From: a virus
Taxonomy: Duplodnaviria > Heunggongvirae > Uroviricota > Caudoviricetes
IMG/VR virus record: IMGVR_UViG_2718218396_000012
DNA length: 38,480 nt
Reading direction: 5' to 3' (one strand)
Of this stretch, positions 18,001 to 21,000 are shown one piece after another (the stretch's first letter is position 1; each line of letters begins with the position of its first letter). The position numbers were made by a program.

Positions 18001-21000
18001 CCGTTTTCATGTCATCCGTTTTCAGCTTAGGCAGCATAAACACACCTTCGGTCATGCCGTCGCCTGTTTCACCCTGTGGAATATCGGTCAGCGCCACCGC
18101 AAAAACATCGCCCACCTGCACCAGATCTCCGCTGCTGATGGCTGCACTGGCAACAATCGCCACCGTTTTTCCTTCTTCTACAAAATTCTTTGCCATAACT
18201 GTCTCCGCACAGCCCCGTTCAGGGGCTGATTTCAGGTACAAAAAAAGCCCTTACGGGCCATCAGAGTTGTTGTCTGCGACGTTTACGCCGTACATTTCAC
18301 CAGACCGCGGTGATCAACTGGCGCGACACCGGCGTCAATACGCACTTTCGTTGTCACGCCATCCACACTGAAGCCCTCCATCTGATCAATATATGGCGTA
18401 TCCACACCGTTGAGATAAGCCACTTCAATCGTATCGGAGCCTTTTGACGCAGCCAGGTAGAAGGTGGTCTGGCTGTTATCATCAAGACGAGGCTCTGCAA
18501 TAACGGTCGCAAAATCTTTCACCGGGTTAATAATACCGGCGTTAATGTCAGCCCCCTTGACACTTGAGGAGCGAATGACCTGGTTAGCAACAGACTCCAT
18601 CGCCGTCGGTACCAGTACGAACGCAGGACGAATATTCAGATGACGCTCCCCCTCTTTCTGAACGCGCATCAACTGGCGGGCTTTATCCAGCGATGCCACG
18701 TCCATTGCAGCGCTCTCCAGTACGTTTGCATGTTTCGCTTTATCGAACAGACTTACATTATCTGTGGAGATTTTCGGGTTAGACGTCAGAATGGCATAAA
18801 CCAGATCGGCAATAGTGGATTTCGCCGCACGGCCCAGTTTCATCGGGACATCGGTCAGCATATTCAGATCATCATTGATAATGGCCTGACGGGTGATACT
18901 GAACAGCTCGCCATAGGTCGCCAGTGCAATAGTGGCCTGTTTATCTCCGGTGGTGACGTATTTATATTCCGCCCCTTCACGCACCTGACGCAGAGCACTG
19001 AAGCCCCCCATACCCACACGATGGGCAATTTTAAAATCAGACAACTGACCTTTCCGCGTCCACTGTTCATAGGTTTCAGGGGCATCTTCCCAGCCCTGCA
19101 GAATGGCTTTGTTCGCAACATCCAGCAGAATATTACCGAAGTCAGACGTACTGTGTGTGAACGCCGCACCGACCATCTGCATCGGGTTATAACTGGAAAC
19201 CCCAATACCCCGTTCAGTCAGTGACATACGGGCATATTCACGCAGGGTCATCCCGTTGTAGACATTATCGCGTTCGGTTTTTTCAAATCCGGCACGCGCC
19301 ATCAGCGCCTGGCGGATCCCATCCCCCACAAAATTACCGTTTCCGGCATAAATATGAGCCGGGGTATTTTTATTAGATGGCGTGGACTCGCGCCCCATCT
19401 CGTTCAACAGCTTTTCGCGGGCCTGCTCCAGCGAACATTCAGGATCGGCAAGACACTGAGCCTGCAGCGTCTGATAACGCCCGCCAAACATGGCAAACAG
19501 ATCATTAATACCGTTTACACGCGCTTTTTGCTCTGCCAGTACCTGCGCACGGATACTGTTTTCATCCACCACAGGTGCTGCTGCCTGCACTGGCGTCCGG
19601 GAGGCTGCAGGTCCATCATCCTGTACGCGTGGAGCACTGTTGCGTGGCGGAGTAATCATGTTTCGAATGGATTCCGGCATCTTTTTAAATTCCTCTGTAC
19701 GTTTTGACTGAATACATGCCATTGCCTTAACGGCTGGCGTCACCTGATCAGCAAATCCATGTGCCAGACATTCGGCACCGGACATCCAGGTCTCATCCGC
19801 CAGCATGGCAGCAATTTCATCGGTGGTTTTCCCGGTTTTCTGTGCATAAACGGGTAACAGAACCGCCTCAACTTTATCGAGCAGGTCGGCATAGGTGCGC
19901 ATGTCCTCCGCATCACCGCCCGTAAAGCCAAATGGTTTATGAATCATCATGAAGGAGTTTTCCGGCATAATGACCGGTTTTCCCACCATCGCAATGACCG
20001 ACGCCATTGACGCCGCCACACCGTCGACATAAACGGTAATGGACGCACCATGTGTTTTCAGTGCATTAAAAATGGCGATGCCTTCAAAGACATCGCCACC
20101 CGGTGAATTGATATTGAGATTAATGTGGGTGATATCGCCCAGTGCATTCAGATCACTGATAAACTGCTTCGCTGTAACACCCCAGAAACCAATCTCGTCA
20201 TAAATATAAATATCCGCGTCACTCTGGTGACCAGCCTGCATCCTGAACCAGGAATTATTCTTCGGACTGGTCGTCGGTGTGCTGCGGCTCCTGTCGTTTC
20301 GTTGCGGCACTGCTGCCTCCTTTATCACTGGCCGGATCGGTATCAAATACCAGATCCAGCTTGCGGTTTTCATCAATTTCGGCCTTGCGCCGACGTTTGA
20401 CATCATCCGGATTACGACCACCTGCACGTACCCAGTCTGATTCTGTCGCTGCTCCACCACGAATCTGAATTTTCCAGGCCTCAGCCTCCTTAACAGGGTC
20501 AATCCACGGCATCACCGGTCCGGAATACACCGCGGTATACAGTGAAGAACGGTCAAGATCGCGGGGTAGCCTGATAACACCGGATGCCACAGCCTGTTTC
20601 AGCCAGGCACGATACATCGGGCGGGTGACGGCACCAATAAACCAGTCCTGCAGGATCAGGTAGCCATCAGTGGATTCAACCAGCTCCTGACGCTGGGCGC
20701 TGTAAGTGCCGTTATAGTTGCGCGCTGTACTGGAAAAAATTCAGACGACTGCCCGCCGCCACGGCACGCAACTGACCATTACGAAAAGTTTCAAGGTTAG
20801 GATTGGGGCGATCCGACTTCACCATTCCGATTTCTTCGCCGGGTTTCAGATCGTCGTAAATAATGCCTGGCTGAATGGTAAGCTCGCGTTCCTTATCCTT
20901 GCTGCCATTACCATCCGGTTCATAGCTCTGCCCATCGCCTTTCCGGATGTACATCCCCAGAGCAGCGGCGATCCTTGCTGCAGTCAGCTCAGAATCCTCA

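Follow-up and report, generated by a model that had tools for sequence, protein, structure and literature searches.

The described structure of gpB, the portal protein of phage lambda, includes a tunnel loop and has Gln379 in contact with DNA; the gpB domains are a wing (residues 24-249 and 368-452), a stem (250-279 and 343-367), a clip (280-342), and a crown (453-511) (PMC10721106). In prophage Sp3 of Escherichia coli O157:H7, the portal was scored 'D' in Table 1 of Asadulghani et al. 2009; the same work gives Sp3 no repressor or antirepressor, a defective integrase, absent replication functions, and defective recombination functions, and detected neither circularisation, nor replication, nor packaging of the element (PMC2669165). 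Here, we describe the portal gene in a stretch of 38,480 nucleotides (nt), the IMG/VR virus record IMGVR_UViG_2718218396_000012, hereafter called the window. On sequence comparison, the window is the defective lambdoid prophage Sp3 of strain Sakai, named CP-933M in strain EDL933. Its portal gene very probably carries a genuine loss-of-function frameshift. That the portal is defective is already documented in annotation and literature. What we add is the exact change, a single G replaced by AT, and its distribution along the lineage from O55:H7 to O157:H7.

The identity of the element is clear from its alignments. Placed in reverse orientation on Sakai 891197-929676, the whole window is 99.98% identical outside one insertion of 1310 base pairs (bp). 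Its portal gene is 100% identical to those of Sakai and EDL933, lesion included, and the portal region is 100% identical in many E. coli O157:H7 chromosomes. The Sakai annotation over this region reads 'prophage Sp3, lambda-like phage'. It gives the portal fragments as ECs_0826 and ECs_0827, the downstream one (ECs_0827) being flagged as a pseudogene in RefSeq, and genomes annotated by the Prokaryotic Genome Annotation Pipeline (PGAP) present the gene as two 'phage portal protein' pieces.

The portal frameshift and its intact counterparts

The portal pseudogene occupies 20255..21764 on the minus strand and measures 1510 nt, against 1509 nt in intact orthologues. Its ATG (21764..21762) shares bases with the TGA that ends the gpW-like gene upstream (TGATG) and opens a frame of 350 codons plus TAA (frame 0; 20712..21764, minus strand). 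This frame encodes native residues 1-341 followed by N-F-F-Q-Y-S-A-Q-L, with the C-terminus ...AAGSRLNFFQYSAQL*, and ends at a premature TAA that is met after the frameshift (20714..20712). A TGA at 20743..20741 immediately precedes the second frame (20255..20740, minus strand), which is open from 20740 and has 161 codons before its TAA at 20257..20255; from F343 on, it specifies the last 160 residues of the native portal, now detached from the N-terminal part. The T6 homopolymer, A6 on the plus strand, lies at 20734..20739, where intact genes have T5. The lesion, as defined by alignments and allele counts, is the 'AT' at 20739..20740 on the minus strand (gene nt 1025-1026), which stands for a single 'G' in intact orthologues, a net gain of one base. 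A first-pass annotation of the window had already traced the portal frame from 21764 to 20714-20712, the T6 run at 20734-20739, and the second frame down to 20255, with every coordinate right. It had also predicted that deleting one T would give a single open reading frame (ORF) of about 500 codons, and such a deletion in the run does give 502 codons, the position of the extra T inside the run being arbitrary.

In an alignment of eight sequences, the window, Sakai, and EDL933 read CTGAA-TTTTTT-CC, and the intact genes read CTGAG-TTTTT-CC (AGT TTT TCC, Ser-Phe-Ser, in ...LSFSS...). The intact form, hereafter G+T5, occurs exactly in 674 genome records and in at least 120 IMG/VR contigs. All 16 full-length matches in the phage collection, including mEp460, cdtI, Tritos, Ayreon, phi458, and others, have G+T5 in a gene of 1509 bases annotated as one portal gene. 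Intact alleles were also sought with a portal query rebuilt to this phage-type site. FDAARGOS_946 matches the rebuilt query at 100.0% over all 1509 bases. The portal is likewise intact in O55:H7 strains DEC5A and DEC5B (100%) and CB9615, RM12579, DEC5D, DEC5E, and TB182A (99.9%), in strain 2013C-4465 (99.9%), and in the O157:H7 strain LSU-61 (99.9%). Between the window and FDAARGOS_946, DEC5A, or DEC5B, the lesion site is the sole difference in the portal gene. The locus of FDAARGOS_946 is the orthologous prophage: it shares the lpxR moron, the nleB2-nleC-nleH1 cargo, and the head and tail genes. The first-pass annotation had suggested looking for T5 in intact homologues, and all of them have it, in a single gene of about 500 codons; the case that it set against its own reading, two separate genes in the homologues, is contradicted by these one-gene orthologues. 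According to these alignments, the net change is from G to AT, not a plain slip from T5 to T6, and residue 342 is ancestrally Ser.

One O55:H7 strain, USDA5905, has a 1-nt deletion of its own in an A4 run (L007 ~3128, gene nt ~128), from GGGAAAAC to GGG-AAAC. Its portal is annotated as 'frameshifted' and is otherwise intact. Being private to the strain, this change could be a true lesion or a mistake of assembly.

We searched 5426 complete E. coli genomes for exact matches to an 80-mer of the mutant allele centred on the run (A+T6) and found it in 287. Among the matches listed, those with a serotype label are O157:H7 throughout. The allele is also present in nine IMG/VR prophage contigs. The same genomes gave no exact match to A+T7 in the mutant context, nor to A+T5 (a 79-mer), the latter being the repaired form AAT TTT TCC (...LNFSS...) that had first been proposed for the gene in place of the real AGT TTT TCC. 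A plain T5-to-T6 slip from an A+T5 ancestor was rejected on this absence of A+T5. The initial idea of a homopolymer slip therefore holds for the run, which did go from T5 to T6, and fails as a plain one-T change, since the preceding base also differs (G versus A). Because the change is compound, an automated repair that deletes one base produces a protein that has never existed. The lesion is shared across assemblies and the outgroup orthologues have the intact allele, which is the pattern of a pseudogene.

With 64 A or T runs of at least six bases in the window, a bare T6 run is unremarkable; the signal is a single Pfam domain divided between two frames. For PF05136 (Phage_portal_2), the family of lambda-type portals, the N-terminal fragment reaches 249.3 bits (profile positions 3-324 of 354) and the intact orthologue 276.1 bits (positions 3-354), both above the gathering cut-off (32.9). 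The gene is also in the position of a portal within a head module, after the genes for the large terminase subunit (21973..24075, minus strand; 700 residues, intact) and the gpW-like head-tail joining protein (21764..21982, minus strand; 72 residues), which sits upstream of the portal in all orthologues. It precedes an intact gene for a fusion of ClpP-like prohead protease and major capsid protein (18283..20310, minus strand; start according to RefSeq), which overlaps the portal 3' end. What is missing is an unbroken reading frame of some 500 codons that spans the wing, stem, clip, and crown. We file the gene as a pseudogene of the PF05136 family, and not as a functional member, because it is split by the +1 shift after codon 341. 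The DNA 3' of the lesion has no differences from the intact orthologue.

Consequence, origin, and timing of the change

The effect on the protein can be gauged from lambda gpB. Residues 305-440 of the intact portal align in phmmer to gpB 332-474 (8k38, E = 1e-4), without a gap across the lesion, and Ser342 falls opposite gpB Ser369. On this mapping, the 350-residue product would retain the clip, the two stem helices, and the first segment of the wing, and would lack the crown and the second wing segment, with its tunnel loop. Because these parts are removed, we infer that the truncated portal should not build a working dodecameric DNA channel. A polar effect may also reach the ClpP-capsid fusion gene that follows.

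We propose the following scenario. In an ancestor of the sampled stx-type O157:H7 genomes, CTGAG-TTTTT-CC would have become CTGAA-TTTTTT-CC at gene nt 1025. The T run would have grown from five to six and the frame shifted by +1, with translation stopping nine codons on and leaving a product of 350 residues. A single error-prone replication pass may have combined a one-base slip in the run with an adjacent misincorporation. The lesion would be one among several that disable Sp3, and its inheritance since then would have been vertical. Judged from the two alleles, one compound replication error is the most likely source of the substitution and the insertion, because the two changes adjoin in a gene that has no other change; the chance of a second, independent change landing beside the run is about 2/1509. 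Two successive events are possible, through an in-frame intermediate in which either G to A was followed by a gain of T, or G to T by a gain of A. Against this, the in-frame intermediates CTGAATTTTTCC and CTGATTTTTTCC were found in none of the IMG/VR or Joint Genome Institute (JGI) metagenome contigs, in a search for which the ancestral and mutant forms served as positive controls and were both found. The first of the two routes would also pass through A+T5, which is missing from the complete E. coli genomes.

The intact alleles allow us to place the change on the path from O55:H7 to O157:H7. LSU-61 is a published intermediate between the O55:H7 and O157 branches (PMC7175801; see also PMC3309690). 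Its portal and its capsid fusion gene (L005 4454-6481) are both intact. By this comparison of alleles, the portal lesion arose after an LSU-61-like stage, because the portal of LSU-61 is intact, and it is fixed in the sampled O157:H7 genomes carrying the allele. In the O55:H7-type copies of FDAARGOS_946 (L004 21454-23481), CB9615 (L006 4454-6481), and USDA5905 (L007 4453-6480), the annotation interrupts the capsid fusion gene with an internal stop. One and the same prophage was thus hit differently by lineage: in the portal in O157:H7 and in the capsid gene in O55:H7. Since the portal lesion is absent from O55:H7 and LSU-61 and fixed in 287 O157:H7 genomes, it is a clean derived marker for this path.

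Alternatives to a loss-of-function frameshift

It is very unlikely that the T6 run is a recoding site at which +1 ribosomal frameshifting, or the transcriptional loss of one U, restores a useful full-length portal. Some features would suit such a role: in AAU-UUU-UUC, tRNA-Phe can move from UUU to a perfect pairing one base further on, the second frame is open throughout, and defective O157 prophages complement one another (PMC2669165). However, the site is not conserved as a slippery arrangement of two frames, intact orthologues and free phages all having a single ORF with G+T5. We also found no stimulatory element: the Rfam scan had no match at 20500-20950 with E up to 1, and the RNA downstream of the portal T6 folds no better than shuffled sequence (z = +0.43). 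Recoding was rejected on these grounds. It is further disfavoured by the 0-frame A-site codon, UUC, which is not slow, and by the length of the run, efficient transcriptional slippage generally needing about 8-9 bases or more. Sp3 itself shows no excision, replication, or packaging (PMC2669165).

The window does contain a genuine programmed -1 frameshift signal, in an insertion sequence (IS) of the IS3 family. The same Rfam scan detected the ALIL pseudoknot (RF01497) there with 121.5 bits, at 25137-25253 on the minus strand, where orfA and orfB overlap at an A6 run (25211-25216). The IS and the portal (20734-20739) are alike in that a 6-base A/T run joins two frames. They differ in that the IS3-family site has a stimulatory pseudoknot and is part of a curated Rfam family of recoding elements, whereas the portal site has none and is absent from intact homologues.

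Another pair of genes of interest for recoding is found further along the window. In lambda-like phages, a programmed -1 frameshift links the genes for the tail assembly chaperones, G and T. These genes lie at about 15078-15802 on the minus strand, and the end of G reads CCGGAAAAGTCCTGA, without the lambda GGGAAAG heptamer.

A weaker form of the recoding idea is that rare slippage at T6 gives a trickle of full-length portal, with Asn342, that is used in trans by the heads of other defective O157 prophages. We consider this extremely doubtful. If true, the Sp3 portal 'pseudogene' would be a low-output helper gene in a network of complementation between prophages.

A phase-variable tract that toggles the portal by reversible slippage is extremely improbable as well. 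Homopolymer tracts may serve as contingency loci, and the loss of one T would put the frame right, with Asn342 replacing Ser. Yet six bases are short for such a locus, and the remaining functions that would let the prophage profit from a restored portal are lacking. The polymorphism in length that characterises contingency loci is also missing: with 287 A+T6 against no A+T5 and no A+T7 in the 5426 genomes, the tract is fixed, and we rejected phase variation for this reason.

The weakest alternative, an error of sequencing or assembly in a gene that is really intact, has next to no probability: indel errors classically arise in homopolymer runs, and the private 1-nt loss that USDA5905 shows in an A run of its portal gene could be one, but the A+T6 80-mer is identical in 287 complete genomes and nine prophage contigs, A+T5 and A+T7 are seen in no assembly, and the neighbouring G-to-A difference is not an error of the homopolymer type. 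Assemblies of O157:H7 stem from many laboratories and from differing sequencing platforms. As far as assemblies allow, sequencing error is excluded, because 287 of them agree and the tract shows no length noise, and the frameshift appears genuine and inherited. The first-pass annotation had left the choice between a genuine slip and a sequencing error; the genuine lesion stands and the error does not.

Some points weigh against the reading of the locus as a genuine loss-of-function frameshift that arose in one event. The exclusion of sequencing error comes from agreement among assemblies, not from reads. The one-event origin is argued from adjacency alone. The loss of assembly competence is drawn from a weak sequence alignment to gpB. 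Finally, the intact downstream frame is uninformative, as the whole gene of this young lineage has no other substitution. In summary, once these points are accounted for, we still hold it very probable that the portal gene of Sp3 / CP-933M carries a genuine loss-of-function frameshift.

A decayed prophage and its relatives

The portal lesion is an instance of ordinary prophage decay and reveals no new mechanism. In the Sakai annotation, integrase and bet are both pseudogenes. The integrase at the prophage edge (window 37710-38480) is a truncated pseudogene, ECs_5702 in Sakai, whose end is the edge of the window. In comparison with the O55:H7-type prophage of FDAARGOS_946, the window has a deletion of 7,425 bp (L004 2002-9426), with its junction at 33649/33650, which takes out the 5' part of bet, gam, kil, cIII, cI, cro, cII, O, P, and part of ninB. 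This deletion leaves Sp3 without immunity and replication functions. The portal thus sits among further inactivating lesions in an element without phage activity, as one finds for a pseudogene in a defective prophage.

The 1310-bp insertion, revealed by comparison with Sakai and EDL933, is an IS629/IS1203 element of the IS3 family in the small terminase (DUF1441) gene, at 24279-25588. It encodes orfA (108 residues) and orfB (296 residues) and has imperfect terminal inverted repeats of 29 nt and a 3-bp target duplication, GTC. Sakai and EDL933 lack this insertion, and its exact junction is present in only five of the 5426 complete genomes (7784, CV261, NZRM4169, Z1835, and Z1836). Because the junction is so rare, the window can be assigned to the sublineage of these five strains.

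Matching the window to the Sakai annotation places the type III effector genes nleB2, nleC, and nleH1-1 at one end of the prophage (window ~254-3900), and the lipid A deacylase moron lpxR between the nin region and Q (~29500-30500). The window stops at the nleH1-1 stop codon, and nleD and the right attachment site fall outside it. The overall picture is of a prophage that O157:H7 retains for the cargo genes it carries (nleB2, nleC, nleH1, and lpxR) and not as a phage.

The locus can finally be set beside its known relatives, from the most distant to the closest. Lambda gpB (PDB 8k38) shares PF05136 with the portal of the window, as well as the conserved S-x-x-x-x-R-N/D-Y motif just past the lesion. 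The relationship is nevertheless distant (E = 1e-4, with only the C-terminal part aligned by phmmer), and the head modules differ, the window having a ClpP-capsid fusion where lambda has C/Nu3/D/E. The prophage of O55:H7 and LSU-61 and the phages mEp460 and cdtI have the same gene, flanked by the gpW-like gene and the ClpP-capsid fusion, with a DNA identity of 98.3-100%; they differ from the window by G+T5, with Ser342, and by a single ORF of 502 codons. Sp3 of Sakai is the same element as the window and differs by the absence of IS629 in the small terminase gene.

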